Shown here: positions 35,915-62,043 of the stretch, in pieces
Numbering within the stretch: position 1 is the stretch's first letter
Layout of the letters: each line of letters starts with the position of its first letter
Program-made: the position numbers and the translations under genes
Source of the DNA: Patescibacteria group bacterium
Lineage (GTDB): Bacteria; Patescibacteriota; Minisyncoccia; Minisyncoccales; Staskawiczbacteraceae
Assembly (NCBI GenBank): GCA_018829965.1
Contig: JAHJTG010000016.1
Location: 157,537 to 221,536 of the forward strand
Reading direction: 5' to 3'
Length of the DNA: 64,000 bases
Notes under the pieces: generated by a model
Databases searched by the model: none
The model's input: only the letters and a program-made list of their open reading frames with translations
Told to the model about the DNA's origin: nothing

Positions 35915-35915
35915 A

Positions 35916-37562: not shown

Positions 37563-37576
37563 AAAAATATAGCCAA

Positions 37577-39094: not shown

Positions 39095-39098
39095 ATTA

Positions 39099-47198: not shown

Positions 47199-48017
47199 TT
47201 AGATTATGTCAGCGAAAAATCTCTCGGATTTCTTAAAATACAATATTCCTAAAAAGAATAATACAATTGATATTAAAGCGGAAAAACCAAAGGCAAACCA
47301 ATTAATTGTTCCAACTCCTAATAATCCTGTTCGTATTGTCTCAATTACTCCACTTATTGGATTGAGATACAACAACCATTGATATTTTCCCAAAATACTT
47401 ACTGGGTAGATAACCGGAGTAAGAAAAAGCAAAAGCTGGATAAAAAATGGCAAGGCATAACGAACATCGCGATATTTAACATTAATAGCTGAAAAAACAA
47501 GACTAAGTCCAGAAATGCCAAAGAAAGTTATAAGAAGAGATGGAATAATAAGTAAAAGTCCGGTTAAGGTCGGAAAAAAATGATAGTAAAACATCAAACC
47601 CACAAAAACTATAAAAGAGAATACAAAATCAAGGAGAAAAACAAAGGTAGAGGCAAGCGGTATAATGATTCTTGGAAAATGAACTTTTTGGATAACATTT
47701 TGTTCTGCAATCAAACTATTACTTGCTGTTAAAAGAGAATTAGCGAAATAATTCCAGAAAAGAAGGCCGGAATAGACAAAAATTGGATAAGGAATCTCTC
47801 CACTTGAAATGCCAGCCAACTTACCGAAAAATATAGAGAAAATTATCATTGTCAAAAACGGCTGTAAAACCGCCCAAGCAATGCCTATTAATGTTTGCTT
47901 GTAGCGAACTTTAACATCTCTCCAAGACAAGAAATAAAAAAGCTCTCTGAAGTGCCAGATTTCTTTCAGGTCTAAATTAAAAAATCCTTTATTGGGTTTT
48001 ATTATTATTTCAACCAT
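47199..48017 (-). CDS. wzm: ABC-2 type polysaccharide exporter permease
   Basis: 272 aa with six hydrophobic helices. N-terminal ELFYFLSWRDVKVRYKQTLIGIAWAVLQP is typical of Wzm/TagG/KpsM permeases. Confidence 0.85.
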   Translation of the reverse strand: MVEIIIKPNKGFFNLDLKEIWHFRELFYFLSWRDVKVRYKQTLIGIAWAVLQPFLTMIIFSIFFGKLAGISSGEIPYPIFVYSGLLFWNYFANSLLTASNSLIAEQNVIQKVHFPRIIIPLASTFVFLLDFVFSFIVFVGLMFYYHFFPTLTGLLLIIPSLLITFFGISGLSLVFSAINVKYRDVRYALPFFIQLLLFLTPVIYPVSILGKYQWLLYLNPISGVIETIRTGLLGVGTINWFAFGFSALISIVLFFLGILYFKKSERFFADII

Positions 48018-48021
48018 TGTT

Positions 48022-48813
48022 TTATATTGAACGAAAATAATTCATATTTTTAATGTCATTTAAAAGTCCGTTTCCCTCTTTCGGCGTCTCAAATGCCAAA
48101 TATATATCTTTTTCTTTTGCTAACCCCGACAGCATCTTTTTAATCCATTTAATATCAAATTCACCATCAAACAGATTTTTATGTTCATCTTCTTCGTTAT
48201 TCATATTCCCATTGCTTATATGAAAATAGAATGGATTTAATTCAGAAATCAGTTTTTTGATAAAATCTTTATAATCAAGTTTCTGACTTACGGCGCTTTT
48301 TATTGTATGGGCTAAATCCAAACAAAAATCAAATCCGCAATCTTTAATAAATTTCAGCTGTTCGCAAGAATACCCGAAACAAAATACATTATTTGTTCCA
48401 ATTTTTCCAGCCTTTGGCATGTTCTCAATTAAAATTCTTTTATCGTTTATCTTCTTGATGTTTTCTTCGAATATTGTTTGAGAATCTCCAACTCCGGCAT
48501 GAACGATTATAAATTTACTATTTAAAAAATCAGCGGTTTTTATAACTTGTTCTTTGAATAATTGTATTTTTGAATCATCTAGCCAAAAAACATCGAAGTC
48601 GTGCTCTGTATGGGTGCTATGAATGACCGTAGGAATATTTTTCAAATAGTTTAAGATATTAGATTTTCCCAATACAAAAGAATCGGGAACAATATATAAT
48701 TCTACAAAATCAATCTCTTTTTTTTCAAATAACTGAACGGCCTCTTTGAATAGTCCTTCGTCATCTATAGACCAAAGCTTTAAACCAAGTTTTATATTGT
48801 TCATTTTATGCAT
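48022..48813 (-). CDS. Xylose-isomerase-like TIM-barrel protein (sugar phosphate isomerase/epimerase family)
   Basis: 263 aa. IDFVELYIVP, FIIVHAGVG, CLDLAHT and ETPKE pattern. An alternative start at 48804 gives an ATGA overlap with the upstream stop. Confidence 0.6.
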   Translation of the reverse strand: MHKMNNIKLGLKLWSIDDEGLFKEAVQLFEKKEIDFVELYIVPDSFVLGKSNILNYLKNIPTVIHSTHTEHDFDVFWLDDSKIQLFKEQVIKTADFLNSKFIIVHAGVGDSQTIFEENIKKINDKRILIENMPKAGKIGTNNVFCFGYSCEQLKFIKDCGFDFCLDLAHTIKSAVSQKLDYKDFIKKLISELNPFYFHISNGNMNNEEDEHKNLFDGEFDIKWIKKMLSGLAKEKDIYLAFETPKEGNGLLNDIKNMNYFRSI

Positions 48814-49538
48814 CTTATTAATTCAAAGGCTTCAACGAAATTTTTACCGACCACTGTGCCCCAGCGCTGGGCAATAATCTTTATGGCTTTTAGTGAACGA
48901 GGATGGGGATATTTTTTAAGTTCGCTTTTATAACAATCCAATGCTTTTATTTTTTGCGAAAGCGTTTTTGATATATCTACAAAATAGTTTGGCACAAAGC
49001 AATCTTTCCTTTTTGGAATTCCCCACTCAGTCGAAGAAAGAACCTCAAAAGAATAAATTTTCTTAACCGTTTCTCCTCTTACTGGTCGACAAGCGGTTAA
49101 AACAGCTTTAAGTGTTATCTGATGGTCAAGATTCAAGTCGCCTGAATGATGGGTAAAAATAGTATCGGGTTTAATTTGCCCCTTAACTTTTTCTATACTT
49201 TTAATTATTTTTATCAAAGGGATAGTTTCATATTGCTGATCTGGGAAATTTTCAAAGAATACTTTTGAAATCCCTAAAATCTTAGCGGCTTTTGAAGCCT
49301 CTTCTTTCAAAGCAACTTGTTCTTTTTCTATTTTGGATTTTTTATCCTTTCCCCTTAAATGCCGTGAAGATTTCCCTTGCCCCAAAAATAAGCAGGAAAT
49401 CTGGCTTCCTTCTTTTTTAAGCTTTGCGATTGTTCCGCCACAGCCAAGTGTTTCATCGTCCGGGTGAGCGGCAATTATTAATATTTTTTTCCCGCCTTTG
49501 GCGGGATTCCGCTGTAGCGGAACTTTCTTAATTACCAT
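48801..49538 (-). CDS. PIG-L/LmbE-family N-acetyl-sugar deacetylase
   Basis: ILIIAAHPDDETLGCGGTIAKL and HHSGDLNLDH. Confidence 0.85.
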   Translation of the reverse strand: MVIKKVPLQRNPAKGGKKILIIAAHPDDETLGCGGTIAKLKKEGSQISCLFLGQGKSSRHLRGKDKKSKIEKEQVALKEEASKAAKILGISKVFFENFPDQQYETIPLIKIIKSIEKVKGQIKPDTIFTHHSGDLNLDHQITLKAVLTACRPVRGETVKKIYSFEVLSSTEWGIPKRKDCFVPNYFVDISKTLSQKIKALDCYKSELKKYPHPRSLKAIKIIAQRWGTVVGKNFVEAFELIRCIK

Positions 49539-50250
49539 AAATTTTTAATAATTCTTTTTTTGTAATATTATTTTCCATTAAAATCTCCAAACTTTTATCA
49601 CCACAGTTAAAAAGTAAATCAATAATACTCATATAAGGAAGGAATTTGCCGTGAAGTTGCGGATAGACGGGATGCTTATATTCCTGAGAATATATCTTAA
49701 TATTTTCTTTAGTAAATTTTTCTTCTTCAGCATAGTCCTTACCCAATGTTCCGAAGATATACAAATCTGCTCCTAATTTTTTGCACATATCCAATACCAA
49801 ATCCGATTTACTCCCCTGAAAATTCAACTCCGAAGCTTTATAGAATTTATTCTTAATACCGAGCGTTGCCAGAAACCATTTAAGCATATATTCGTTCAAA
49901 TCGGTTAGATATTTCCACTCTTTTTTATAGACATCTTCAAAAAAATCTGCGTATTTGTTGAAATAAGGAGCTTTTTTATAATTTAAATAAATTGATTTCC
50001 AGTGTTTTTTTCTCCAATCTACAGAATTATTTATTTCTATTTCTCTTATCTTCTTCTCCCTGTATCCTGTGGTCAAAACCGGCACCGTCATCCATATTTC
50101 CCCGTTTTGCGTCTTAATCTTGTTTCTATTATTCCAATCCTTTATTAAATATTGGACATCGTCAAAATAACAGAAAACATCACTGATAGCAATTTTATGA
50201 AATAATCCAAGCCATGGTAAATATACTGGTTGATGAGCGGTTAAAATCAT
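49528..50250 (-). CDS. WbqC-family protein
   Basis: 240 aa. MILTAHQPVYLPWLGLFHKIAISDVFCYFDDVQY matches the WbqC-like family N-terminus as I recall it. Confidence 0.75.
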   Translation of the reverse strand: MILTAHQPVYLPWLGLFHKIAISDVFCYFDDVQYLIKDWNNRNKIKTQNGEIWMTVPVLTTGYREKKIREIEINNSVDWRKKHWKSIYLNYKKAPYFNKYADFFEDVYKKEWKYLTDLNEYMLKWFLATLGIKNKFYKASELNFQGSKSDLVLDMCKKLGADLYIFGTLGKDYAEEEKFTKENIKIYSQEYKHPVYPQLHGKFLPYMSIIDLLFNCGDKSLEILMENNITKKELLKIYGN

Positions 50251-50251
50251 T

Positions 50252-50944
50252 TTATTTTCTCGTTATTATTACATACTCGTCAAATGCCATGAGCCTTTGC
50301 GGTTTATTATGGACTTCAGTTACCGAATGCCTCATAATATTTTTTATCTTAAACTTGGAATATAATTCATAAATTTCTTTAAGGTTTATAAAATGAACTT
50401 TGCCTGTATTAAAAAAACTGCCTTTTCGAAAATTAGTATATGTATTTGGCTCAATTTCTTCTCCAAGCTTGCGTTCCGGATGGTAAAAACTATAAATAAA
50501 ACTTATAAATAATCCGTTTCTTTTCATTTTTTTGTAAATCTCATCAACAATATTTTTGATGTCGCTAAATTTATTGGCATATAAACTTTCTCTATCAACA
50601 ACTAAGTCAAAAAAATTATTACTATAAGGCAAATTTAAAAAATCTCCTTGGATAAAATTGCCTTTTAAGTTTAACGTTTTAAACTTCTCTCTACACTTTT
50701 CTATCGCCGATTTTGAACCGTCTATCCCCCAAACGTCAAAGCCGTTTTCGGCTAAAAATTTGGTGTTGTTTCCAGCACCGCAACCCAAATCTAAGACCCT
50801 TATTTTATTTCTTTTATTCTTAAGAACGTCAAAAAAATTATGGGCAACTATGCTTACCAGAATATCATAAGGATATTTATTCAAATGTTTTCCCTTTGAA
50901 TAAATATTTTCTTCCCAATTTTTATCAAAACTTTTTTTAATCAT
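50252..50944 (-). CDS. Class I SAM methyltransferase
   Basis: VLDLGCGAGNNTKFLAENGFDVWGIDGS. Confidence 0.8.
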   Translation of the reverse strand: MIKKSFDKNWEENIYSKGKHLNKYPYDILVSIVAHNFFDVLKNKRNKIRVLDLGCGAGNNTKFLAENGFDVWGIDGSKSAIEKCREKFKTLNLKGNFIQGDFLNLPYSNNFFDLVVDRESLYANKFSDIKNIVDEIYKKMKRNGLFISFIYSFYHPERKLGEEIEPNTYTNFRKGSFFNTGKVHFINLKEIYELYSKFKIKNIMRHSVTEVHNKPQRLMAFDEYVIITRK

Positions 50945-51384
50945 TTTTTTATATTCTTATAATAACCGCTTTTAATCTTCATCGGATTGCCAACTACCAA
51001 TGAATAAGGAGGGATTTTTACGCCTTCAACAATTGTTCCTGCGGCAATCACTGAATGATGCCCTATATATGCTCCTTTTTTTACAAAACAATGAGAGCCT
51101 ATAAAAACATTATTCTCAATAGTAATATCTTTCCGCTCTATTTCTGATGCCAATCCAATACATTTTTTATGGGAATCAGCCACATTTATAGCGACGAAAG
51201 AAGCAATATCGCAATTATCCCCTATAGATATTTTTGCCCCTTTCGCATTGATTTCTGAGAAAAAACCAATGAAAACGTTTTTCCCTATTTCTGGCTTGCC
51301 ATTAATAAATGCGAAGGGGTGAAACGGATTTTCTTGATTTTCCATCACTTCAAGCAATAATTTTTTAAATTCTTTTTTTCCCAT
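50941..51384 (-). CDS. Hexapeptide-repeat (left-handed beta-helix) acetyltransferase
   Basis: 147 aa. Repeating [LIV]G-x4 pattern: ISIGDNCDIASFVAI...ITIENNVFIGSHCFVKKGAYIGHHSVIAAGTIV. Confidence 0.75.
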   Translation of the reverse strand: MGKKEFKKLLLEVMENQENPFHPFAFINGKPEIGKNVFIGFFSEINAKGAKISIGDNCDIASFVAINVADSHKKCIGLASEIERKDITIENNVFIGSHCFVKKGAYIGHHSVIAAGTIVEGVKIPPYSLVVGNPMKIKSGYYKNIKK

Positions 51385-51387
51385 AAT

Positions 51388-52449
51388 TTATTTTAATTTT
51401 TTTAAAGTTATCAGTTCGCCTTTTTTTATATCTTTGATTGCTTCCTTTCCTTTAATAATCCCTGCAAATCTAGGAGGAAGCCCTGTCCCTGGTCTTTTAC
51501 ATTCAACGTCTGATAGTTTTATCTTTTCTCCTCTTTTAATATTTTTCGTGGCAACTATACTTCTCCTGACCAGCTTGCGCATTCCTTTTTCCTTTCTGGT
51601 AGGAAAAATTAAAGGGCTACCTAATGATTTTTCAATGAATCTTATTCCCTCCACCAATTCTTTTAATTCTTCGGGATCGGCGGAAAACCAGTGGTCTGGC
51701 CCTGACATATTTTTATTAAGAGTAAAATGTTTTTCCACAACTTTAGCTCCGAGAACTACTGCTCCGACAGAAGCCAATATCCCTTCTGCGTGATCAGAAA
51801 AACCAACAACAATTTTGAATGAATCTTTTATTGTTTTTATTCTTTTCAAATTTACTTCCTCTGCGCTCGCAGGATAAGAAGAAATGCAATGTAAAACAAT
51901 GATATTGTTATTGCCCGATTTCCTAATTGCCGATACTGCGTCTTTAATTTCGGAAGCATAAGCCATACCCGCAGAAATTATCATAGTTTTTTTCTTCTTC
52001 GCATAATATTCAATTAAATCTAAATTTGTAAGGTCATCTGAGCCTATCTTTATAAAAGGCAAACTAACTAAAGATAATATAAAATCTAAATCTGAAATAT
52101 TTTGGGCAGTTGTAGAAAAAACTATTTTTTTCTTTTTGCAGTAATCAATAATTTCTTTCCATTCTTTTTCAGAAAATTCATACCGCTGAAGCATTTTAAT
52201 CTGGGGTTCTGTAATTTTTTTGCCTTGAGATTTGTAAGTGTAAGTAAGATTTTCATCTGCAATAAGTTTTTTTGCTTTAAAGGTTTGAAATTTAATGCAA
52301 TCTGCTTTTGCACTTTTCGCTACATCAACCATTTTTTTGGCAATGTTTACGTTTCCATTATGGTTTATCCCGGCTTCGGCAATGATAAAACAGGGTTTTC
52401 CTTCCCCTACCCATTTGTTACCTATTTTTATTTTATTTACTGTCTTCAT
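51388..52449 (-). CDS. neuB: Nonulosonic acid synthase (NeuB/PseI/LegI family) with SAF domain
   Basis: 353 aa. IIAEAGINHNGNVNIAKKMVDVAKSAKADCIKFQTF, IKIGSDD, LHCISSYPA, GFSDH and EKHFT. The C-terminus is SAF-like. Confidence 0.9.
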   Translation of the reverse strand: MKTVNKIKIGNKWVGEGKPCFIIAEAGINHNGNVNIAKKMVDVAKSAKADCIKFQTFKAKKLIADENLTYTYKSQGKKITEPQIKMLQRYEFSEKEWKEIIDYCKKKKIVFSTTAQNISDLDFILSLVSLPFIKIGSDDLTNLDLIEYYAKKKKTMIISAGMAYASEIKDAVSAIRKSGNNNIIVLHCISSYPASAEEVNLKRIKTIKDSFKIVVGFSDHAEGILASVGAVVLGAKVVEKHFTLNKNMSGPDHWFSADPEELKELVEGIRFIEKSLGSPLIFPTRKEKGMRKLVRRSIVATKNIKRGEKIKLSDVECKRPGTGLPPRFAGIIKGKEAIKDIKKGELITLKKLK

Positions 52450-53216
52450 ATCTGTTTCCGTTTAACTTCTTTATTTATCTCCATTAACTCAGGATGCGTT
52501 TTTAATAGGTTCACCACGTCTTCCATGAAAAAAATCTCGCCTTTTTTATATAGTCTTTTATAAATCTCTCTGACTAATTCCAAATCTTTCATTTCGTCTA
52601 CCGTGCACCGCATATACGAAACATCTTCAGTGTTTTTGATAGCGGCTATCTTAAAAATCTCTGGGTGTTCAAAAATATAAGGATCGACGTGTTCTCTCTG
52701 GTACGGTTCTTTTGCCTGCTGGTAAGCATTTTCAAGGGTTGAAAAATTGAAAACTTCAAGCTCTGTCCCGTGGAGGAATGTTCTTTCAAGCGTTTCCCCT
52801 CTTTTTCCTTCAAGAAAATTAGCAGTGAAATCAGCGCCGTAATTTAAGTGTTTTTCGATAACCAAATCTGCTATTTTAGGGTCGATCAAAGGACAATCTG
52901 AGGTCATTCTTACTATCAAATCACATTTAAATTTTTGCGCTGCTTTAAAATATCTTGAAAGGACATCTTCTTCGCTACCTCTAAAATATTTTATTTTATT
53001 TTCCTCAGCAAATTTTTCTAATGCATCATTTTCTTTCGTATCGGGAATGGCAAGAATGACTTCATTAATTCTCTTTGAAAATTTTAATCGGTTAATTAAA
53101 TGCCAAAGCATTGGTTTGCCCATTATATCCATTAACACCTTGCCAGGTAACCGCGTAGACCCCATCCTTGCCTGGATGATTGCTCCGATTATTAACTTAG
53201 GATTTTCTTTTTCCAT
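52446..53216 (-). CDS. Cytidylyltransferase-family protein (SpsF/CTP_transf_3 type; candidate CMP-nonulosonate synthetase)
   Basis: 256 aa. GAIIQARMGSTRLPGKVL. Translationally coupled to the neuB-like gene. Confidence 0.75.
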   Translation of the reverse strand: MEKENPKLIIGAIIQARMGSTRLPGKVLMDIMGKPMLWHLINRLKFSKRINEVILAIPDTKENDALEKFAEENKIKYFRGSEEDVLSRYFKAAQKFKCDLIVRMTSDCPLIDPKIADLVIEKHLNYGADFTANFLEGKRGETLERTFLHGTELEVFNFSTLENAYQQAKEPYQREHVDPYIFEHPEIFKIAAIKNTEDVSYMRCTVDEMKDLELVREIYKRLYKKGEIFFMEDVVNLLKTHPELMEINKEVKRKQI

Positions 53217-53868
53217 TCTTTTTTAAAAGATACATTACGTCTGTATTGTTTTCAGCCAAATATTTAACCTTTTTTTCTTTAACTAATTTCAAATCTTTAA
53301 AAGAATCCAAATATAATTTTGGGTAATTTGCCTTCCATGCGAATTTTCTTTTCCGGCGAGACCAATTTAATATTTCTGTGAATTTTTCATCGAAATATTC
53401 AAAACCAAAAATATATTTTTTAGAACATCGATGAATTTCTTTCAGCGCTTTTTTAATATCTTTCGGTGAAATATGAATAAGAACACCGGAGGTAAATACT
53501 AAATCAAAATAATTATCTTTAAATGGAATATCTAGTGCCGAGCCTTGAACAACGCTGACGTTTTTTGCAATTGATTTGCCACGCTCTATAACTTTTGGAT
53601 TTATTTCTACCCCATAAAGATTTTTAAAGCCCATTTTTTGAAGATATAGAAATTGGACGCCTACATTACATCCCACTTCCAGAATCTTAATGGAACGATC
53701 AAGTTTACCGAGGAATTCTTTATTTAATTTTGTCCGGCTGATGCCATAATACTTAACGTATAATTTATCTGTTCCTTCTGTGCTTAGAGGATTTTTAACA
53801 ATATCGGCGGTATATTCATTACCGAGATCGCCGCCCCATTGTTGCTCTTGAAGAGTTAATTTAACCAT
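53197..53868 (-). CDS. Class I SAM methyltransferase of the pseudaminic-acid-biosynthesis-associated methylase type
   Basis: 223 aa. N-terminal QEQQWGGDLGNEYTADI and ILEVGCNVGVQFLYL. The family resemblance is from memory. Confidence 0.65.
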   Translation of the reverse strand: MVKLTLQEQQWGGDLGNEYTADIVKNPLSTEGTDKLYVKYYGISRTKLNKEFLGKLDRSIKILEVGCNVGVQFLYLQKMGFKNLYGVEINPKVIERGKSIAKNVSVVQGSALDIPFKDNYFDLVFTSGVLIHISPKDIKKALKEIHRCSKKYIFGFEYFDEKFTEILNWSRRKRKFAWKANYPKLYLDSFKDLKLVKEKKVKYLAENNTDVMYLLKKNGKRKS

Positions 53869-53881
53869 GGTGAAAATTATT

Positions 53882-55006
53882 TTAATTAATTATTTTTTTA
53901 ATTTCTTTTATGACCTTTTTTATATCCTTTTCCGCCAATGACGGGAAAAGCGGTAAAGTTATTTCTTTTCCATAATACTTTTCCGCTACAGGAAAATCTC
54001 CATTTTTATATCTGAATTTTTTCTGATAGAAAGGATGAAGATGTAAGGGCATATAATGAACCTGAACGCCAATTCCTTGTTTTTGCAAGGCATCAAATGT
54101 TTTTCTTTTATCAATCCATCTCAATTGAATAGGATATATATGCCAAGACGATTTAACATAATCTTTTTCAGTTGGAGTTATGATCTCTTTAATGTTTTTA
54201 AATGCTCTATTATATATTACAACAATTTCTCTTCTTCTTTTAATAAATCTATTTATCTTTTTTAATTGGCTTAATCCTAAGGCACATTGAAAATCAGTAA
54301 TTCGATAATTGTATCCGGGATTTTCTATCTCATAATACCATCCGCCTTTCTCTGGTTTTTTTACTATTCCATGATGCCTTAATGTTTTCAGCTTTTTATA
54401 AAAATCTTTATTGTCTGTTAATATCATTCCCCCCTCCCCTGTAGTAATGTGCTTTACTGGATGAAAACTTAGAATTGTCATATCCGCGAAAGAACCGACT
54501 TTCTTCCCTTTATATTTCGCTCCTAAGGCATGACAGGCATCTTCAATCACTAAAAGATTATGCTTCTTTGCTATTTTTAAAATTTCATCATAATCACAAG
54601 GATGTCCGGCAAAATCAACTGTAACTATAGCTTTAGTTTTTTTAGTTATTTTTTCTTCAATTAAATCGGGATTAATATTGAGAGTATCGCTCTTAATATC
54701 AATAAAAACTGGCTTTGCCCCTAAAACTGCGAGCATATTAGCAGTGGCAGCAAAGGTTAAGGGAGTTGTGATTATTTCATCTCCTGATTTTATCCCGGCT
54801 ACGATATAGGCTAGGTGAAGGGCGGCTGTACCCGAAGAAACAGCTACGCCATATTTTGCTCCGCAGTACCTGGCAACTGCTTTTTCAAATTCCTCAACTT
54901 TTGGCCCTTGAGTCAACAAATCGCTTTTTAAAACCTTAACGACTTCTTTAATGTCGTTATCGTCTATCGACTGGTGGCCATATGAAATTATTGGGATTTT
55001 AGCCAT
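53882..55006 (-). CDS. pseC: UDP-4-amino-4,6-dideoxy-N-acetyl-beta-L-altrosamine transaminase-like (PseC-type DegT aminotransferase)
   Basis: 374 aa. SYGHQSIDDNDIKEVVKVLKSDLLTQGPKVEEFE, SFHPVKHITTGEGG, HGIVKK, GYNYR and GIGVQVHY are all shared with PseC as I recall it. Confidence 0.85.
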   Translation of the reverse strand: MAKIPIISYGHQSIDDNDIKEVVKVLKSDLLTQGPKVEEFEKAVARYCGAKYGVAVSSGTAALHLAYIVAGIKSGDEIITTPLTFAATANMLAVLGAKPVFIDIKSDTLNINPDLIEEKITKKTKAIVTVDFAGHPCDYDEILKIAKKHNLLVIEDACHALGAKYKGKKVGSFADMTILSFHPVKHITTGEGGMILTDNKDFYKKLKTLRHHGIVKKPEKGGWYYEIENPGYNYRITDFQCALGLSQLKKINRFIKRRREIVVIYNRAFKNIKEIITPTEKDYVKSSWHIYPIQLRWIDKRKTFDALQKQGIGVQVHYMPLHLHPFYQKKFRYKNGDFPVAEKYYGKEITLPLFPSLAEKDIKKVIKEIKKIIN

Positions 55007-55929
55007 TGTGTTGTTTTATTTATTCCTTGTTCTAAATTTATTATCGGTTTCCATCCTAAAATATTCTCTGCTTTGCTTGAATCTGCGCACATATTCATTA
55101 TTTCTGCATGAGGATGATGATGTTTAATAAATTTTACTTCCACTTTGTTATCGGCTATTTTTTCTGCCAAATCTTTTATTTTTAATTCTATTCCGGAACC
55201 AGCGTTAAAAATCTCTCCGATTGCTTTATCATTAAAACAAGCTTTTACAATAAATTCAGCGCAATCTTCTATGTAGAAAAAATCTCTTCCCTGCTTCCCG
55301 TCTCCAAAAACTTCCAATGGTTCTCCTTTAAGCTTCTTATTTATAAATATACTCATTACCCCTCCTTCAGAATCGCTCCTTTGATAAGGGCCGTATATGC
55401 TGAATGGCCTTAGGATGACAACTGGCAAATTATACGTTTTGAAATAAGACATTATAATATCTTCTCCGTTGATCTTGCTTGCCGTATAAGGACACGAAGG
55501 ATTAAGAGAATGTCCTTCCGCTATTTTTTGACCTGGTTCGATCTTCTTATAGACTAAAGCAGAACTTGCAAAAACCATTTTTACATTATGCCTTCTACAT
55601 TCTTCAAGAATATTGAAAGTGCCTAAACAATTGTCGTTAAAACATTTCTCCGGATTATCAATACTTTCTTGAACGTCTATTGCTGCAGCGAAATGAATAC
55701 ATATATCAAAATTGTTTTTAAAAAGGTTTGAAACTAATTTTCTGTCTTTAATATCTCCTATCACTAATTCCTCTAATTTATCTTTGAATTCTTCGACATT
55801 TTTTTCAAAACCATTTGAAAGATTGTCTAAAATCCAAACTTTGTGCCCTTTATCAAGTAAGTTTTTTGCAGTCCAACGGCCCATAAAACCAGCTCCTCCT
55901 GTTATTAAAATTTTAGCCTTTATATCCAT
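54988..55929 (-). CDS. NAD-dependent NDP-sugar epimerase/dehydratase/reductase (extended SDR)
   Basis: ITGGAGFMGRW and YTASKINGE (YxxxK). Confidence 0.85.
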   Translation of the reverse strand: MDIKAKILITGGAGFMGRWTAKNLLDKGHKVWILDNLSNGFEKNVEEFKDKLEELVIGDIKDRKLVSNLFKNNFDICIHFAAAIDVQESIDNPEKCFNDNCLGTFNILEECRRHNVKMVFASSALVYKKIEPGQKIAEGHSLNPSCPYTASKINGEDIIMSYFKTYNLPVVILRPFSIYGPYQRSDSEGGVMSIFINKKLKGEPLEVFGDGKQGRDFFYIEDCAEFIVKACFNDKAIGEIFNAGSGIELKIKDLAEKIADNKVEVKFIKHHHPHAEIMNMCADSSKAENILGWKPIINLEQGINKTTQWLKSQ

Positions 55930-57334
55930 AATCCCACCAATTTACAGGTAAATTATATTTTTTCATTTTATCTTGAACAGCCTTAAATGCTTTCTTTTTG
56001 AATTCTTCTATCTCCGGAGCACTCACATCATAGGGCTCGCCAACGCTGGTATTACAATCATAGAGCTCCCAGTTTTTATGAAATATCTTATACCTGAACT
56101 TTTCGGGATTTCTAAATATTTCTGTGCCTGGATTCGGAGCCAGAAGATTAAACTCTGCTCTTGAATTCTCAACAATCAATTTAAACGACATCATTCCAAG
56201 AAGCTCCTTAAAGTTTTTTTTCACCGTTGGGAATGTGGCATCACAGCATTTTAAGGCAATATCCAAGGTCTGTTCAAGTGTTTGTTTTGTTTCTCCTGGA
56301 AGCCCTAAGATAAAGCCTGCATGAAAAAGCATTTCATTTCTCAAAAACATTTCGGCAATTTCCAAAATCTTAGATACGGTGATGGCCCGCTTGTTAAACT
56401 TAAGTACTTCGTCCGAACCTGACTCCATTCCAATATATAAGTTAGTGCAGCCTGCTTCTTTTAATTTTTTAAGGATATCTTCAGTAATGCCATCCGGCCT
56501 TGTCGCTGCCCGGAACTGTCCGACATTTTTGCTTTTTATCACATCTAAGACTTGCTTAGTGCGTTCCGGGTATAAGCCCATAAATTCGTCTTCGTACCTT
56601 ATTTCAAGTTTTGGATTCAATGAAAGAGCAAGCTCTAATTCTTGAGATATTTTATCAGAAGGACGACAACGGATTACTCTTCCATGTATTAGCGGCAATT
56701 CGCAGAAAGTGCAGTTATGCGGACATCCTCGCGTGCACATCAGAACAACATAAGTGTATTTACTCATATCAAGCATATCATAGGCTGGTATAGGAATCTC
56801 TTCGGGGCTCAATAACGGGCCTATCGGATTATCAACTATCTCTTCGCCATTTCTATAACTAATATTTTGTATTTGCGGAAAAGGTTTACCTTGACTAAGC
56901 TCAAATATCGAACGTTCTCCTTCTCCTCTAATGACAGCATCAATCCACGGACATTCATTCAGAGTTTCATGAGCCATAAATGTGACATGCACGCCTCCGA
57001 TAACTACTATTGCGTTCGGAGCTGCCTCTTTTGCTGCTTTAACTATCTTAGTAGCGGGAATATATGATATTGTTGTAGATGTTATCCCAATAATATCCGG
57101 CTTATGCTCTTCTATATAGTATTTTACAAATTGCTGTATTTCTTCTATTGAGCGGGAAAGGAGCGAAGGTCGTTCATATTGCATCTGTTTTGTATCTAAA
57201 ATATCTACCTTGACTCCTGCATTGCGCAAATAGGCCGCTATATACATAAGTCCCTTCGGAGGAAACTGAGTCAACCATTTTATATCCCACGGTCTTTCTG
57301 GAAACGGCGGATCAATTAGTAAAACCTTTAGCAT
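55913..57334 (-). CDS. B12-binding-domain radical SAM enzyme (class B)
   Basis: 473 aa. DIIGITSTTISY...VVIGGVHVT is followed by CTRGCPHNCTFCE (CxxxCxxC). Confidence 0.8.
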   Translation of the reverse strand: MLKVLLIDPPFPERPWDIKWLTQFPPKGLMYIAAYLRNAGVKVDILDTKQMQYERPSLLSRSIEEIQQFVKYYIEEHKPDIIGITSTTISYIPATKIVKAAKEAAPNAIVVIGGVHVTFMAHETLNECPWIDAVIRGEGERSIFELSQGKPFPQIQNISYRNGEEIVDNPIGPLLSPEEIPIPAYDMLDMSKYTYVVLMCTRGCPHNCTFCELPLIHGRVIRCRPSDKISQELELALSLNPKLEIRYEDEFMGLYPERTKQVLDVIKSKNVGQFRAATRPDGITEDILKKLKEAGCTNLYIGMESGSDEVLKFNKRAITVSKILEIAEMFLRNEMLFHAGFILGLPGETKQTLEQTLDIALKCCDATFPTVKKNFKELLGMMSFKLIVENSRAEFNLLAPNPGTEIFRNPEKFRYKIFHKNWELYDCNTSVGEPYDVSAPEIEEFKKKAFKAVQDKMKKYNLPVNWWDYGYKG

Positions 57335-58335
57335 AGGTCTATTTCTGTTTCCAATAATTTATTTATTTCTTCCTGCGATATATGCTGACCCATGTTTGAA
57401 GCAATAACCGGATTTTCAATCAATTTCGTATCCTGATATTTATTTCTGACGTTTGAATAATCAACCATCGGGAAAATAACATATAGATTATCCATTTCTA
57501 TCGCCCGAGAAAGTTCTTCGTCTGACATTATATGCTCATGCATTTTTTCACCTTCTCCCTTTCCCGCAATAATCGTTTTTATTTCTTTCCCATTGGAATA
57601 TCTGTTTATCATTGCCTGGGCTAAATCAACAACTTTTAATGTTTTCATTTTCCAAACAAAAGATTCTCCTCCTTTTACAAATTTGATGGCCTTACAAATT
57701 AAATCTACCGCTTCATCCATTGTGATGACAAAACGAGTCATTTCCTTATCGGTAACTATAATCGACCCGCCTTCTTTAATCTGTTTTTTAAAAAGCGGAA
57801 TAACAGAACCGTTAGACCCTATTACATTTCCAAAACGCACAGAAGCAAACAAGGTTCTTTTATTTCCCTTGTAAAATTCTGCTAAAGAAACTAATTTCTC
57901 GCCCATAAGCTTTGTTATGCCCATTACACTTAATGGACGAGCGGCTTTATCCGTACTTGAAAAAATCACTTTTTCAACATTTTCGTTTCTAGCGCAGTCT
58001 ATAACATTCTGTAAACCTTCTATATTTGTTTTAATCGCTTCAAACGGATTATATTCGCAGGCATAAACATGCTTCATTGCCGCCAAATGGATGACTATAT
58101 CAATTCCTTCCATTGCCGTCTTTAACCTATTCAAATCCTTTACGTCTCCGATTAAATAACGCAATCGTTTTTCATTAATAAACGCGCTTCTGATTTTAGA
58201 TATTTCGTTTTCCGACAAATCAAAAATACGAATAACATTTACATCATACTTCAACAGCTTTTTTATTAAAGCATTTCCCACTGAACCTGCTCCGCCGGTT
58301 ATTAATATTTTCTTATTTTTTAATTCTTGTTCCAT
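57328..58335 (-). CDS. Soluble UDP-GlcNAc 4,6-dehydratase of the PseB/FlaA1/CapE/FnlA family (MxxxK variant)
   Basis: 335 aa. ILITGGAGSVGNAL, HLAAMKHVYACEYNPFEAIKTNIEG, STDKAA, MGITK (Met where PseB has Tyr) and VRFGNVIGSNGSVIPLF. Confidence 0.85.
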   Translation of the reverse strand: MEQELKNKKILITGGAGSVGNALIKKLLKYDVNVIRIFDLSENEISKIRSAFINEKRLRYLIGDVKDLNRLKTAMEGIDIVIHLAAMKHVYACEYNPFEAIKTNIEGLQNVIDCARNENVEKVIFSSTDKAARPLSVMGITKLMGEKLVSLAEFYKGNKRTLFASVRFGNVIGSNGSVIPLFKKQIKEGGSIIVTDKEMTRFVITMDEAVDLICKAIKFVKGGESFVWKMKTLKVVDLAQAMINRYSNGKEIKTIIAGKGEGEKMHEHIMSDEELSRAIEMDNLYVIFPMVDYSNVRNKYQDTKLIENPVIASNMGQHISQEEINKLLETEIDLC

Positions 58336-58351
58336 TTTTTAAAAAACAAAG

Positions 58352-58600
58352 CTACCATTTTTTGATAGCTTCTTTAGTTTTATTTCTTACTTTTTTATAA
58401 ACATTAAGGACTCTTGTTTCAAAGGTAGGAGAAATCAGATTCAGAATTTCATCGCCCCAAATCCTATATTGACCGCTTACTTTATAAGCTTTAATAATGC
58501 CGTTCCTTATCATTCTTTTCATCGTGCTCTCGCTGACTTTTAGAAAATCACGAGCTTCCTTTGGCGTATATATTTTTTCTGGTTTGATTTCTTCTGGCAT
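58352..58600 (-). CDS. Small helix-turn-helix DNA-binding protein (excisionase/MerR-type HTH_17-like)
   Basis: 82 aa. YTPKEARDFLKVSESTMKRMIRNGIIKAYKVSGQYRIWGDEI. Lies 16 nt upstream of the dehydratase gene. Confidence 0.7.
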   Translation of the reverse strand: MPEEIKPEKIYTPKEARDFLKVSESTMKRMIRNGIIKAYKVSGQYRIWGDEILNLISPTFETRVLNVYKKVRNKTKEAIKKW

Positions 58601-58641
58601 ACAATAACATTAAACCCCTCTCGACGTAGTGTCAAGAGGGG
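58601..58641 (-). terminator. Putative intrinsic terminator after 58666-59232
   Basis: In gene sense, the CCCCTCT/AGAGGGG stem (58635-58641 pairs with 58615-58621) has a 13-nt loop that contains GAC/GTC pairing. It is followed by TTTAATGTTATTGT running into the HTH start codon. Confidence 0.5.
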
Positions 58642-58665
58642 TCAAAAGGTATCAATTGCCTATTA

Positions 58666-59232
58666 CTAGATTCTATTGAATGCGATGTTTTTTTCCCTTA
58701 TTTTAAATCTCTTTTTAATCCAGACTCCTATTAATTCATAGCTCCCGAAAAAGACGGTCGCGTAAAATAAATTTCCCAATAATGTATTTCTGAAAAATGG
58801 CAGAGCCATAAAATAACACTGGATTATTCCAGAAATAGTTTTGGCATACCAAGGGGAAAAAGCCCAAACTGCAAAATTAGTGATAAGGAAAAATAGAACA
58901 GCGGATAAAATCGCGCTCCCCCCTACTGTATACCACTTCTTATGTCCCTTTAACCAGAAACCAAGAATAACGTATAAAAGAAAGCTACCATAAACTGCAA
59001 TCATTAATTTCGGGTCATAATAGCCGATAAATAGATCGCTGATTGCCATTACTGCTAACGGCAGAAATAATGCTATCTTTCTTGAGAAATAGACTCCTCC
59101 AAATAAAGCAATGACGGCTATGGGGGTGAAATTAGGAGCATGGGGAATAAGCCTCAAGCTGACTCCGATTATAATAAAAACTAAAGCAATAGTGAAATTT
59201 AATGTTTTCCCTTTTTCAGTTAATTTTGACAT
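58666..59232 (-). CDS. Polytopic membrane protein (ECF S-component-like/DUF6580-like putative vitamin transporter)
   Basis: 188 aa with 5-6 hydrophobic helices. The RLIPHAPNFTPIAVIALFGG motif is one I associate with a putative-transporter family. The assignment is tentative. Confidence 0.5.
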   Translation of the reverse strand: MSKLTEKGKTLNFTIALVFIIIGVSLRLIPHAPNFTPIAVIALFGGVYFSRKIALFLPLAVMAISDLFIGYYDPKLMIAVYGSFLLYVILGFWLKGHKKWYTVGGSAILSAVLFFLITNFAVWAFSPWYAKTISGIIQCYFMALPFFRNTLLGNLFYATVFFGSYELIGVWIKKRFKIREKNIAFNRI

Positions 59233-59261
59233 ATTACTATAATATATAAAATTATTAATAA

Positions 59262-60404
59262 TTAAAAGGTTGATTTTTCAAATTTAAACTCTACTTTGTC
59301 CCCAGATTTTATAATCATTTTATCCGCGGAAATCATAGGCATTTCTCCATTAATGTAATATAGCCAATATTTTCCATCCTGTCCATTTTCTTTATCCCCA
59401 ATTGCTTCAATAAATATTCCAATATCATAATTCTTTGTTTTAAGCGCTAAGTATAATTTTTTAGCCTCCTCCTCTAATAAATCAAAAGCGGTCATTCCTT
59501 CTTTAAATTCGGCAACAGAGGTCTTTGGATTCTCTTCCCCATAATCAATTACCAATACTGCTTCTTTCCCTACTGTTTCCAGGGCAACATTATTTTCTTT
59601 AACGTTAGCCTGCCAAAAATCACTAGAAAGTATCAACCAACTGCCAATAATAACAATTATTACCGCTCCAATTATGATGTAAATAAATTTCTTATTAACA
59701 AAATTTCTATTAATAATTTTTTTCTTAATAAAATATAAAATCGCTAATAATAAGATTATCAAAATTACCAATATGACTGTTAACCATATATCGTTCAAGA
59801 TATTCATCATTCCTGTCAATAAACCAGCTTGGGCTATAATCTCATAATTAATTTGATTGGACGTAGATTCTTCTTGCTCCTCTTGTTGTAAAATTGTTTC
59901 TTGCTCTTGCTGTTCAACATCCTGTTGAATATCTTTAGGTACAATTATATTAACAGCAGTTATGTTATATGCACCACCTTCTACATTAAAAGGAATATCT
60001 GTGCCCGCCCCTATAACATTAACATCTGTTAAAAATAATTTTCCTTGACCGGCTTGAACTCCTTCAGCAGACACCGAAAGAATATTTTGAACAGCAACTA
60101 CGCACTTTGGAATCCCTAAAACAAAACTGGGGCTAGCGCAAGTTGGAGTAATCATGGCCATAACACCACTATCTGTAATAATATTTTGGCAAGATAAATT
60201 ATCAAAGTTTAAAGTACCTTTTACAACACAAATATCGTTATTTACCGAATCTATTTGGATAGAAATGCTAAAAACGCTACCAGCTGTGCTATTAAGCGAT
60301 GCTGGTAAAACAGACAATGTTGAGCTATCTGCATAAACCATTTGGCTCATTCCAAATATTACTACGATAGTTAATAATACTAATAAAGTTATTTTTTTCA
60401 TCAT
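59262..60404 (-). CDS. Surface protein: signal peptide, cohesin-like beta-sandwich, Q/E-rich linker, two TM helices, C-terminal DUF4430 (transcobalamin-like beta domain)
   Basis: 380 aa. MMKKITLLVLLTIVVIFGMSQMVYA; LSVLPASLNSTAGSVFSISIQIDSVNNDICVVKGTLNFDNL (cohesin-like); QQDVEQQEQETILQQEEQEE. C-terminal AFDLLEE...IGIFIEAIGDKENGQDGKYWLYYINGEMPMISADKMIIKSGDKVEFKF is DUF4430-like. Confidence 0.6.
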   Translation of the reverse strand: MMKKITLLVLLTIVVIFGMSQMVYADSSTLSVLPASLNSTAGSVFSISIQIDSVNNDICVVKGTLNFDNLSCQNIITDSGVMAMITPTCASPSFVLGIPKCVVAVQNILSVSAEGVQAGQGKLFLTDVNVIGAGTDIPFNVEGGAYNITAVNIIVPKDIQQDVEQQEQETILQQEEQEESTSNQINYEIIAQAGLLTGMMNILNDIWLTVILVILIILLLAILYFIKKKIINRNFVNKKFIYIIIGAVIIVIIGSWLILSSDFWQANVKENNVALETVGKEAVLVIDYGEENPKTSVAEFKEGMTAFDLLEEEAKKLYLALKTKNYDIGIFIEAIGDKENGQDGKYWLYYINGEMPMISADKMIIKSGDKVEFKFEKSTF

Positions 60405-60405
60405 A

Positions 60406-60438
60406 ATTTTATTTACATTTTATTTACATTTTATTTAC
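60406..60438. repeat. Perfect 11-bp x3 tandem repeat filling the intergenic gap
   Basis: attttatttac at 60406-60416, 60417-60427 and 60428-60438. The third copy contains the stop codon (60435-60437) of the upstream gene. The first copy ends 1 nt from the ATG at 60404. Confidence 0.85.
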
Positions 60439-61739
60439 TTATCCCAATTAAACATCAAAAGGGCAAAATCGTATTCGTTAATTGCGCCGTCGTGATTTAA
60501 ATCAGCCAAACCTAAACCAGGTTGGCCCCAATCTTCTCTTAATACGGCGAAATCATATTCGTTAATAATATTATCGCTATTTATATCGCCGCTTTTTTTA
60601 GCTGACTGCGGAGGATCAACAGCAAAACTAACTGAAATGGTGTGGTCAGCATCAATATTATTAAAAGTATAACTAGTTACTGTGCCGACCGAAACGCCAT
60701 CTACTAAAACATCCTCAACGTGGTAACCGGTGTCCGGACTAATAGTGAAAGCTTCGTCTGAAGTAGCGCCAACCCTCACCATTCCCGAAAAGAAAATTAA
60801 GCCATGCTCACTAGCAGACGCATTAATAACATACATTCTTACTCCGCCACCACTGCTATCTATTGAGACAGAATATTTGCCTACTGGATAAAACTTTTGA
60901 GACAAAGCAATCACCGCGTAAGCAGTCGAACTTGGAAAAGGCCAATACTTTTCAAAAGAACCGTCGGATATTTGTAAGGACTTCAAATTATCAATAGGAT
61001 TTTTACCATTTTTTGACCAATCAGAGGGATTTTGACCTAATTTATAAATAGCCGAAATAACCCAAGCATCGGAAGAAGCATTTGAATCAGTCCCCCAAGG
61101 ACTTACAGGGTCATAAGGAAACCCGCCATCAGAGTTTTGGCATGATTTTAAATAATCAACAGCTTTTATAATTACTGGGTCGCTTGATGAAGTTCCAGAT
61201 TCCAATAAAGCCATAATAGCTGCTGCTGTATCGTCAACATCACTACCCCACCCAATACCAAAAGGAAATCCGCCATCAGGATTTTGGTTTGTCAAAATAA
61301 AATTTTTAGAATCCTGAATAATTTGACTGCTTGAATCTTCACCGGCTGAAACCAAAGCTAAAATTCCCCAAAAATCATCGTTTAAATAATTCGTAGAACC
61401 AATCTGATTATTTTGATAAAAACTCTCCAACTGGCTAACAAAATCAATATCGCCAAAAGTTCTTGGATTCTCGCCGGCAGCAGTAATAGCTAAAATTATT
61501 TTTTCGTAATCAGTGGCTGAGCTACCACTAAGAGTTTTTAGATAATTTAGGTCCGTATCTGTTTTTCCACCCGCGATTAAACCCATAGTTATCCAAGGGT
61601 CGGAAGATTGAAGCTCAAGATAATTAATAGCTTTATCAATTTCTGATTGATTTTCTGCTTGAACTTCAGAAAAAGCGGTGAATCCGATTAAACCGACTGA
61701 AATTGCGACTAAAGAAACGACTAAAATTATTTTTTTCAT
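60435..61739 (-). CDS. Secreted alpha/alpha-toroid (prenyltransferase/squalene-oxidase repeat) protein with beta-repeat domain and C-terminal dockerin-like repeats
   Basis: QNPDGGFPFG, QNSDGGFPYD and QISDGSFEKY (QW-type repeats). C-terminal GDINSDNIINEYDFAVL...ADLNHDGAINEYDFALL (two dockerin-like Ca-binding repeats). Start set at MKKIILVVSLVAISVG (61739); the 13 extra codons in the track (to 61778) lie inside leader copy D. Confidence 0.7.
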   Translation of the reverse strand: MKKIILVVSLVAISVGLIGFTAFSEVQAENQSEIDKAINYLELQSSDPWITMGLIAGGKTDTDLNYLKTLSGSSATDYEKIILAITAAGENPRTFGDIDFVSQLESFYQNNQIGSTNYLNDDFWGILALVSAGEDSSSQIIQDSKNFILTNQNPDGGFPFGIGWGSDVDDTAAAIMALLESGTSSSDPVIIKAVDYLKSCQNSDGGFPYDPVSPWGTDSNASSDAWVISAIYKLGQNPSDWSKNGKNPIDNLKSLQISDGSFEKYWPFPSSTAYAVIALSQKFYPVGKYSVSIDSSGGGVRMYVINASASEHGLIFFSGMVRVGATSDEAFTISPDTGYHVEDVLVDGVSVGTVTSYTFNNIDADHTISVSFAVDPPQSAKKSGDINSDNIINEYDFAVLREDWGQPGLGLADLNHDGAINEYDFALLMFNWDK

Positions 61740-62005: not shown

Positions 62006-62013
62006 TTTTATAT

Positions 62014-62043
62014 ATACTATCTTTTTCTCAGCAAGGTTGTCAA
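62014..62043 (-). promoter_or_regulatory. Putative sigma70-type promoter (TTGACA, 18-nt spacer, TAGTAT)
   Basis: In gene sense, TTGACA lies at 62043-62038 and TAGTAT at 62019-62014. No experimental support. Confidence 0.3.

Follow-up and report, generated by a model that had tools for sequence, protein, structure and literature searches.

A radical SAM gene with a B12-binding domain in a pseudaminic-type operon of a Patescibacteria bacterium and a probable carbon-methylated nine-carbon sugar

Known pathways and the first step of the operon

Nonulosonic acids such as sialic, pseudaminic and legionaminic acid are key surface sugars. To our knowledge, the known members differ in stereochemistry and in N- or O-substituents but not in the carbon skeleton. 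In the canonical pathway to pseudaminic acid (Pse) of H. pylori and C. jejuni, PseB, PseC, PseH, PseG, PseI and PseF take uridine diphosphate (UDP)-N-acetylglucosamine (UDP-GlcNAc) through a 4-keto-6-deoxy, a 4-amino and a diacetamido sugar to the free sugar, which is condensed with phosphoenolpyruvate (PEP) and activated with cytidine monophosphate (CMP). In the CMP-Pse pathway of Bacillus cereus and Bacillus thuringiensis (Li et al. 2015 and Delvaux et al. 2018, as cited in PMC7439481 and PMC8987622), PseB is replaced by two enzymes. Pen makes UDP-6-deoxy-GlcNAc-5,6-ene, and Pal converts it to UDP-4-keto-6-deoxy-L-AltNAc (PMC7439481, PMC8987622). We analyzed a related operon in 64,000 nucleotides (nt) of DNA, called the window here (contig C16:157537-221536), from a Patescibacteria genome of 0.74 Mb with a stated completeness of 99.7%. 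The window stretch was found in groundwater metagenome DNA runs, and no RNA run was listed. A gene for a radical S-adenosylmethionine (SAM) enzyme with a B12-binding domain was located between the Pen-like and Pal-like genes of the operon, which probably makes a previously undescribed carbon-methylated nine-carbon sugar.

The genes of the block 47199-58600 are closely packed and form one operon for a pseudaminic-type CMP-activated nonulosonic acid. All open reading frames (ORFs) were verified at their coordinates on the minus strand, and most neighbours overlapped by 4-20 nt. From 58335 down to 48022, adjacent genes overlapped by up to 20 nt or were spaced by at most 13 nt, which indicated a single operon. 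Families were assigned from Pfam and NCBIfam profile scores against their cut-offs, and whole-genome profile searches and tblastn were performed. An initial annotation of this DNA had described a co-oriented Pse-like module at 51388-58335. The module was real, with the aminotransferase and the Pse-associated methylase above their cut-offs, and the hexapeptide acetyltransferase was located just outside that range. The genes from the dehydratase onward were as follows.

57328-58335 (-): Polysacc_synt_2 dehydratase of the Pen/PseB superfamily with TDK and MxxxK (Met139 for Tyr); Pfam, NCBIfam, PDB matches and tree
55913-57334 (-): radical SAM enzyme with B12-binding domain, CxxxCxxC = C204, C208, C211; B12-binding 85 bits (cut-off 32, PF02310), Radical_SAM 81 bits
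54988-55929 (-): Pal orthologue, extended short-chain dehydrogenase/reductase (SDR); PDB 6bwl 354 bits, 50% identity to B. cereus Pal
53882-55006 (-): PseC-type aminotransferase; TIGR03588 equivalog, 501.8 bits against a cut-off of 423.5
53197-53868 (-): methylase associated with Pse biosynthesis; TIGR03587, 158.6 bits against a cut-off of 112
52446-53216 (-): CMP-nonulosonate synthetase, CTP_transf_3; Pfam 120 bits, PDB 6oew 158 bits
51388-52449 (-): NeuB-family nonulosonate synthase with SAF domain; Pfam NeuB and SAF
50941-51384 (-): short left-handed beta-helix (hexapeptide) acetyltransferase; Hexapep, NeuD/PglB/VioB family on the C-terminal half, 47.7 bits
50252-50944 (-): class I methyltransferase; Pfam
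49528-50250 (-): WbqC-family protein; Pfam
48801-49538 (-): PIG-L deacetylase; Pfam
48022-48813 (-): endonuclease-IV-like triosephosphate isomerase (TIM) barrel, candidate replacement of PseG; fold and profile alignment

The first step was assigned to the known two-enzyme Pen/Pal route of Bacillus. The SDR, which the initial annotation had taken for an extra insertion, was identified as the Pal orthologue of this route. It matched Pal of B. thuringiensis (PDB 6bwl) with 354 bits over residues 6-312, which is its whole length, and the next structure reached 149 bits. In the Pal tree, it fell into a Pal group (Shimodaira-Hasegawa-like approximate likelihood ratio test, SH-aLRT, 92%) apart from other SDRs. 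The dehydratase was also nearest to Pen. Among solved relatives, Pen (6bwc) gave 257 bits, followed by FlaA1/PseB (244), CapE (216) and PglF (156), and the identity was 42.7% to B. cereus Pen and 38.8% to PGAP-named PseB. The reference Pen/Pal operon on the B. cereus plasmid pRML05 (locus L030) consists of pen, pal, pseC, a cytidylyltransferase-like gene, pseG, pseH and pseI. Beside the dehydratase, identities to its products were 50% for Pal, 54.5% for PseC, 34% for the cytidylyltransferase and 36% for the synthase. As in Bacillus, a Polysacc_synt_2 dehydratase was followed by a Pal-type SDR and a PseC-type aminotransferase. Unlike in Bacillus, the radical SAM gene stands between the first two, the dehydratase has Met where Pen has its catalytic Tyr, PseG and the GNAT PseH are missing while genes for an endonuclease-IV-like barrel and a hexapeptide acetyltransferase are found, and methyltransferases, WbqC and PIG-L are added. 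On another Bacillus-type operon, pen-pal-pseC-pseG-pseH-pseI of the B. mycoides plasmid CP037991.1 (L023:8020-8978), we observed that pal was split over two frames with no gene listed, and it looks like a frameshifted pseudogene.

The place of the dehydratase was further examined with family models and a tree. It scored 309.7 bits with the PseB model, under the equivalog cut-off of 407.75, and 229.7 bits with the FnlA model, for which the cut-off is 730. The window protein was located in a 100/100 clade of dehydratases linked to the radical SAM gene, nested (96/89) with Met-type enzymes from nonulosonate clusters that lack this gene. The PseB references formed a separate 100/100 clade on a long stem and were joined at 86/79 to Tyr-type Pdeg-like enzymes. 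SpsM and PglF stood on long separate branches, and the backbone that links the Pen, PseB, SpsM and Met-type clades was left open by the tree. A quick tree had placed the protein in a Pen clade with 82% SH-aLRT, which the finished tree did not retain. A reference entered as CapE-like (Priestia plasmid) had Tyr and grouped with a Pdeg-like enzyme; true CapE was absent from the tree and was compared through PDB scores only. The initial annotation had proposed a position outside PseB, closer to CapE-type enzymes. The former part held, with scores under the PseB cut-off and a separate long PseB branch, whereas the nearest characterised relative was Pen, with the Pal orthologue two genes downstream, and not CapE. 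Pal-like genes accompanied this dehydratase clade with or without the radical SAM gene.

The radical SAM enzyme and its possible chemistry

The radical SAM gene between the dehydratase and Pal genes is the new element of this operon. The pathway type is known, and the triad of dehydratase, radical SAM enzyme and Pal and the candidate substitute for PseG are new variants. Related loci were scanned with one genome per species (labels L0xx), and 12 loci with close relatives (72-94% identity) were found in Patescibacteria, including Saccharibacteria and Staskawiczbacteria, Firestonebacteria and Omnitrophota. The order dehydratase-radical SAM-Pal was found in 12/12 of these and on five more distinct metagenome contigs with remoter members (55-74%) and with NeuB and CTP_transf_3 always nearby, which gave 17/17 loci. 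Four or more bacterial phyla and a single archaeon were represented among them. The genes around the triad varied, and the aminotransferase, hydrolase and synthase changed or moved among loci. A PseC-type aminotransferase was found at 71-78% identity in triad loci of the candidate phyla radiation, and none was found beside the triad in L033 and L034. In Omnitrophota (L010:2941-11125), the triad was combined with a legionaminic acid (Leg)-type set of NeuB, Epimerase_2 (LegG-like), a PglD-like acetyltransferase, a different aminotransferase and a cytidylyltransferase. This meant that the triad feeds more than one kind of nonulosonate pathway.

The radical SAM enzyme was counted as a member of step 1 because of this invariant order, the overlapping genes, a discrete orthologue group and matching trees. 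The overlap of its gene was 7 nt with the dehydratase gene and 17 nt with that of Pal. The orthologue group comprised about 70 clusters at 55-100% identity, with the next relatives at 34-36% and no functional name on any. The Pal and dehydratase trees contained the same three triad lineages, and the dehydratase and Pal of most radical SAM-linked triads formed their own clades. Among 401 sampled Patescibacteria genomes, the enzyme was found at E <1e-100 only in the window genome. The cassette is rare and patchy yet highly similar across phyla, which suggests spread by lateral transfer. A literature search found no paper that links a B12 radical SAM enzyme to nonulosonate synthesis.

Two of these loci had additional features. 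In Firestonebacteria (L008:4272-7073), the triad and a cytidylyltransferase were followed by HisF- and HisH-like genes and a 417-aa protein, which resembles the acetamidino-forming WbuX/HisH/HisF trio. One of the five metagenome contigs came from a metagenome-assembled genome of the archaeon Methanoperedens (L018). Its triad was accompanied by NeuB, ACPS, HMGL-like and AMP-binding genes, and the gene for an AglB oligosaccharyltransferase was about 8 kb away, which is suggestive of an N-glycan bearing an acylated nonulosonate.

The initial annotation had named the embedded gene as a class-B-type radical SAM gene, and the analysis agreed. The enzyme has CxxxCxxC in a radical SAM domain, an N-terminal B12-binding domain and the fold of solved class B members, and C204, C208 and C211 were invariant in 53 sequences. 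The best PDB sequence match was 9ccb (69.6 bits), which is MgmA/QCMT, a B12-dependent glutamine C-methyltransferase. A structure model (predicted local distance difference test, pLDDT, 94.2) was searched with Foldseek. AprD4 (6fd2) was at the top with a template modelling (TM) score of 0.72-0.75, and MgmA, OxsB, TsrM, TokK and CysS were found with E 1e-18 to 1e-23. The TM scores to the B12 methylases were 0.62-0.71. Most characterised B12-dependent radical SAM enzymes are methyltransferases, typically on unactivated carbons, according to a review (PMC12931638). Like the C-methyltransferases GenK, Fom3, TokK, CysS and MgmA/QCMT treated there, the window enzyme has a B12-binding Rossmann domain followed by a CxxxCxxC barrel. 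Unlike them, its presumed substrate is a UDP-sugar en route to a nonulosonic acid, and the identity is only 15-20%.

On balance, we lean slightly towards the explanation that this is a Pse-type operon with a Pen/Pal first step, in which the radical SAM enzyme C-methylates the UDP-sugar and the TIM barrel serves for PseG. By analogy with Pen, the dehydratase would act on UDP-GlcNAc and give the 5,6-ene exo-glycal. The radical SAM enzyme would methylate a carbon of the UDP-sugar that is made by the dehydratase and passed to Pal, and the Pal orthologue would complete the conversion to a UDP-4-keto-6-deoxy-hexosamine. The site would most likely be C6, which is unactivated or allylic in the exo-glycal. 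This carbon corresponds to C9 of the final sugar, so that the chain would be lengthened by one carbon. A B12 radical enzyme would be most needed at C6, because ordinary SAM enzymes are able to methylate C3 and C5, the neighbours of the 4-keto group. Abstraction of H4 from a Pen-type exo-glycal would give a radical delocalised to C6, and methyl transfer there would leave the 4-enol or 4-keto sugar needed by the later enzymes. Clusters with and without the radical SAM gene otherwise shared their downstream enzymes (L034 vs L022; L016 vs L020), so that this enzyme appeared as an optional add-on. Such a pattern is in line with a tailoring step in which the functional groups stay as they are.

A related reaction has been predicted in tunicamycin synthesis, where TunB would form a radical SAM C-C bond at C6 of a UDP-exo-glycal (PMC5365060). 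The pairing of a 5,6-dehydratase-type enzyme with a radical SAM enzyme and the proposed C6 chain extension of an exo-glycal are shared with TunA/TunB (PMC5365060, PMC8987622). Unlike the window enzyme, TunB has no B12 domain and couples a uridine radical and not a methyl group, the end product is different, and TunA has a TCE motif and Tyr where the window dehydratase has TDK and Met. In its most specific form, which is tentative and less probable than the general one, our proposal is that the triad works as a three-enzyme machine. The exo-glycal would be the handle for radical methylation at C6, and the product would be a ten-carbon 9-C-methyl (3,5,7,9,10-pentadeoxy-dec-2-ulosonic) relative of pseudaminic or legionaminic acid. 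The initial annotation had put forward a product that is modified and possibly C-methylated. This was still the most reasonable reading, and the C-methylation is what we infer.

Several points weigh against the overall explanation. Gene order is no proof of reaction order, and the orthologue group of the radical SAM enzyme has no characterised member. The Pen-like assignment rests on scores, identity and the partnership with Pal, not on a supported clade, and Bacillus Pen carries Tyr where the window dehydratase carries Met, so that the 5,6-ene product is an analogy only. The synthase favoured NeuB/LegI-type models and SpsE over PseI, the acetyltransferase is of the Leg/bacillosamine type, and the triad of L010 feeds a Leg-type gene set. 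The anticorrelation between the barrel and PseG that is described below was drawn from 11 related genomes, and one of them (G401) had neither the barrel nor a clear PseG, only a 28.6-bit match to the PseG model about 25 kb from the locus. Literature searches did not turn up a natural C-methylated or ten-carbon ulosonic acid, and we know of no report of one. In addition, the top fold match AprD4 is a radical SAM diol dehydratase whose substrate is an aminosugar, and the best NCBIfam scores of the enzyme were BchE (150 bits) and HpnJ (144 bits), neither of which is a methylase. AprD4 is not known to need B12, although it has a similar N-terminal domain, and it works with an SDR-family reductase.

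These last matches, all of them remote, are the basis of the main competing chemistry, in which the radical SAM enzyme would act on the same UDP-sugar intermediates without methylating them. The reaction could be an AprD4-like dehydration or deoxygenation finished by the SDR, an epimerisation, or a ring rearrangement like those of OxsB and HpnJ. The enzyme is always beside two SDRs, and it resembles AprD4 of apramycin C3' deoxygenation (AprD4/AprD3) in length (473 aa, and 453 aa for AprD4) as well as in fold. However, the identity to AprD4 was only 17-18%, the match to the AprD4 family model was confined to the radical SAM core (62 bits; cut-off 500), and the TM scores to the B12 methylases were about equal. 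The cassette of the window is linked to B12 uptake genes and a riboswitch. Removal of the 3-OH would take the oxygen that closes the nonulosonate ring, and 3-deoxygenation is thus hard to fit with ring closure. The shared downstream enzymes of clusters with and without the radical SAM gene are also easier to explain when the functional groups are unchanged. We therefore considered a non-methylating reaction unlikely and retained C-methylation of the UDP-sugar.

Later steps and the missing PseG

The later steps were assigned from family matches, and PseC-type amination was well supported at this level. The PseC orthologue would aminate C4, and the hexapeptide acetyltransferase would acetylate the new amine. 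The NeuB-family synthase would condense the free sugar with PEP, and the CTP_transf_3 enzyme would make the CMP-sugar. The two SAM methyltransferases, WbqC and the PIG-L deacetylase may add further decoration. WbqC and PIG-L recurred in loci L005, L012 and L032. For the role of WbqC, a protein-atlas search gave only other WbqC clusters and a literature search gave nothing useful. The operon resembles the canonical pathway in its sequence of intermediates from UDP-GlcNAc to the CMP-sugar and in a PseC above the equivalog cut-off. It differs in that the dehydratase, synthase and cytidylyltransferase were under the PseB, PseI and PseF cut-offs and the genome lacks PseG and PseH. The synthase scored 367.3 bits with NeuB_NnaB (TIGR03569, cut-off 399.65) and 275.8 bits with PseI (TIGR03586, cut-off 340.25), and its solved relatives were SpsE (1vli, 210 bits) and then PseI (8h2c, 179 bits). 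The cytidylyltransferase reached 25 bits with PseF (TIGR03584, cut-off 205.7). For PseH, the best match in the genome was 27.8 bits, under the cut-off of 93. This match was the GNAT at 34178-34864, which sits in another sub-cluster with a NeuB-cupin gene and was rejected. The hexapeptide enzyme is likely the N-4 acetyltransferase in place of the GNAT PseH, as judged from its family.

The stereochemistry of the product may not be that of Pse, since the synthase is nearer to NeuB/LegI/SpsE and the acetyltransferase is of the short hexapeptide type, as in PglD/LegH. A product of legionaminic-type or other stereochemistry is a downstream question that is compatible with any role of the radical SAM enzyme. 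SpsE is the synthase of the B. subtilis Leg pathway, and in L010 the triad is accompanied by LegG-, PglD- and NeuB-like genes. Pen and Pal together also yield the gluco-configured 4-keto sugar, which can feed the Leg pathway (PMC7439481). In contrast, the aminotransferase exceeded the PseC cut-off and had 54.5% identity to Bacillus PseC against 36% to the aminotransferase of L010. The Leg route requires a hydrolysing 2-epimerase, and Epimerase_2 (PF02350, LegG/NeuC family) had no match in the genome. The Pse-associated methylase was present as well. A product of Leg-type or other stereochemistry is thus rather unlikely.

The initial annotation had seen no PseG, and the whole genome confirmed this. 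The best match to the PseG model TIGR03590 was 15.7 bits, elsewhere on the contig outside the window, and tblastn of the genome with four seeds taken from related loci, three PseG-like and one LegG-like, gave nothing convincing. One tblastn match of a PseG-like seed at 27893-28084 was located in an ORF for a UDP-glucose dehydrogenase fragment and was discarded. A Nudix or a PIG-L protein had been suggested as the substitute, and both had less support than the TIM barrel. The Nudix gene (43562-44050) sits with cytidine diphosphate (CDP)-sugar genes, and none of the 12 related loci had a homologue of it in the 8 kb around the triad. PIG-L is a deacetylase family.

Evidence that is suggestive but not conclusive points to the TIM barrel as the likeliest substitute for PseG and a candidate UDP-sugar hydrolase. 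Its gene (48022-48813) stands at the end of the sugar operon. Of the 11 triad genomes, eight had a homologue (41-70% identity), with the window genome counted among them. Seven of these eight had no match to the PseG model, and one (G404, locus L012) reached 19.5 bits against a cut-off of 153.55. Three triad genomes had no barrel, and two of them had PseG-like genes (96.5 and 79.9 bits), one together with a LegG-like gene. A homologue at 48% identity was embedded in another nonulosonate cluster. The barrel model had a pLDDT of 94.3, and the best fold match was endonuclease IV (3aam, TM 0.73). The residues H65, H71, H105, E130, D166, H169, H198, H211 and E242 were invariant in the family, and in a profile alignment the invariant residues fell on the HAPY, VHGG, LEN, CLDxxH and DRH motifs of M. 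tuberculosis endonuclease IV. H65, H105, E130, D166, H169, H198, H211 and E242 aligned with the metal-ligand motifs of this enzyme, whose family (Nfo) consists of trinuclear-metal TIM barrels. Unlike in Nfo, the family of the window protein is found in nonulosonate clusters and not in a DNA-repair context, and a UDP-sugar is proposed as the substrate; the sequence similarity was marginal (profile E ~0.008). An endonuclease-IV-like metal-dependent barrel would then remove the nucleotide instead of PseG.

A second, unrelated B12-domain radical SAM gene was observed in several of the related loci (L002:15948-17033, L011:15943-17025, L012:14761-16152). The identity was 22-24%, measured in L002 and L011. 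In these two loci, it was located directly after the barrel gene.

B12 supply, the surrounding locus and the Met of the dehydratase

The sugar operon is directly preceded by B12 capture and uptake genes headed by a riboswitch. These genes, the possible regulator and the exporter at the other end were as follows.

61892-62033 (-): cobalamin riboswitch heading the B12 capture and uptake genes; Rfam RF00174, 39 bits against a gathering score of 31.5
58666-61778 (-): B12 capture and uptake genes; Pfam
60435-61778 (-): toroid protein with dockerin; Pfam
59262-60404 (-): DUF4430 protein; Pfam
58666-59232 (-): DUF6580 membrane protein; Pfam
58352-58600 (-): small HTH_17 (excisionase/MerR-like) protein, possible regulator, directly upstream of the dehydratase; Pfam HTH_17, 43 bits
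45791-48017 (-): Wzm/Wzt ABC exporter after the sugar genes; Pfam, NCBIfam

L004 and L011 also had cobalamin riboswitches at this position. DUF6580 homologues (63-75% identity) were located within 8 kb of the triad in 7/12 loci; in L002 and L006, they were part of the sugar cluster itself. Homologues of the HTH_17 protein (48-88% identity) were upstream of the triad in nine of the 12 loci. A 13-bp GC-rich hairpin (58613-58643, -) was observed in the 65-nt gap between the DUF6580 and HTH genes. It probably ends the B12 uptake transcript, in which case the sugar operon would not be under the riboswitch. The genome has three proteins with a B12-binding domain, all in the window, namely the radical SAM enzyme of the triad and two other radical SAM proteins (10477-11937 and 12008-13975, -; 486 and 655 aa). 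NrdJ was not found in the genome. Since these three were the only B12-binding-domain proteins found, B12 import seems to serve surface-glycan tailoring only. The riboswitch-controlled uptake operon would supply B12 to all three enzymes.

Nearly the entire window is a single minus-strand glycan locus, which starts with the cobalamin riboswitch and B12 capture genes and has genes for a PglC-like initiating transferase and a membrane-bound dehydratase of the PglF/WbpM type at its other end. At this end (1486-3959, -), the dehydratase (616 aa; CoA_binding_3 and Polysacc_synt_2; gene 1486-3336) is beside the PglC-like Bac_transf transferase. The locus thus encodes two UDP-GlcNAc dehydratases, of which this one probably serves the reducing-end sugar. 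Five class I SAM methyltransferase genes in a row were observed at 22822-26440 (-), followed by a GT4 glycosyltransferase and an apparently truncated UDP-glucose dehydrogenase (276 aa; the C-terminal domain was not among its Pfam matches). A second NeuB-type system at 34178-39133 (-) consisted of a NeuB-cupin fusion, a thiamine diphosphate enzyme, an NT5C-like HAD phosphatase, a DUF386/YhcH protein and a GNAT.

In such a locus, the radical SAM enzyme might act elsewhere, on the finished nonulosonate, a glycan or a protein, and merely travel with an operon that makes canonical or only N/O-methylated Pse. Gene order and reaction order need not agree, and the two other B12 radical SAM genes and the many methyltransferases of the locus clearly tailor other sugars. 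However, its position between the dehydratase and Pal was invariant in all 17 loci while the synthase, aminotransferase and hydrolase changed or moved. Its gene overlaps both neighbours, and the dehydratase and Pal of most linked triads are in their own clades. A role outside the first step is therefore very unlikely, and C-methylation of the UDP-sugar within that step is preferred.

The active-site translation of the dehydratase was SSTDKAARPLSVMGITK, in which TDK was retained and Met took the place of Tyr. The initial annotation had reported this loss of Tyr (MGITK) correctly. With Met139, the enzyme departs from the [ST]DK...YxxxK signature of PseB and the TDK...YxxxK signature of Pen (PMC8987622 Table 1). 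By analogy with PglF, the loss may be tolerable, because Thr, Asp and Lys can carry out catalysis without Tyr (PMC8987622). At this position, the 120 nearest homologues had Met (116) or Leu (4) and never Tyr. Among the references, Tyr was found in Bacillus Pen (NNYGATK), two PGAP-named PseB and two Pdeg-like enzymes, and Met in SpsM and one PglF-like enzyme. The Met-type dehydratases included direct neighbours of a Pal-like SDR without a radical SAM gene (L020, L022), and these pairs ruled out Met as a marker of the radical SAM cassette. On sequence grounds, Met is the mark of a large dehydratase clade in nonulosonate clusters of uncultured organisms and not of CapE or PglF function, because all 120 nearest homologues carry Met or Leu, including those of pairs without the radical SAM gene. 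The view of the initial annotation that Met for Tyr points to a CapE/FnlA- or PglF/WbpM-type enzyme, with the pathway leaving Pse chemistry already at the dehydratase, is highly improbable: MxxxK does occur in PglF/WbpM (PMC8987622) and in CapE and SpsM (PMC7439481), and CapE reads AMGISK at the aligned position, but CapE and PglF scored below Pen and FlaA1, the FnlA score was far under its cut-off, SpsM and PglF were on long separate branches, the conserved partner is a Pal orthologue, and the window already has its PglF/WbpM-type enzyme at 1486-3336.

If the proposed role of the radical SAM enzyme is true, a conserved enzyme of the initial pathway step would diversify nonulosonic acids in a new way, and it is spread over candidate phyla and one archaeon or more. 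In the most specific form of the proposal, uncultured anaerobic bacteria and archaea would carry a new class of sugars similar to sialic acid on their surfaces. No B12 radical SAM enzyme known before would then share its type of substrate, a nucleotide sugar from primary metabolism of the cell surface. Radical SAM enzymology gains a defined, testable substrate in UDP-GlcNAc with two soluble SDRs. The barrel offers a testable answer to the recurring problem of the missing PseG. These results also suggest a possible reason why a genome of 0.74 Mb retains riboswitch-controlled B12 import.

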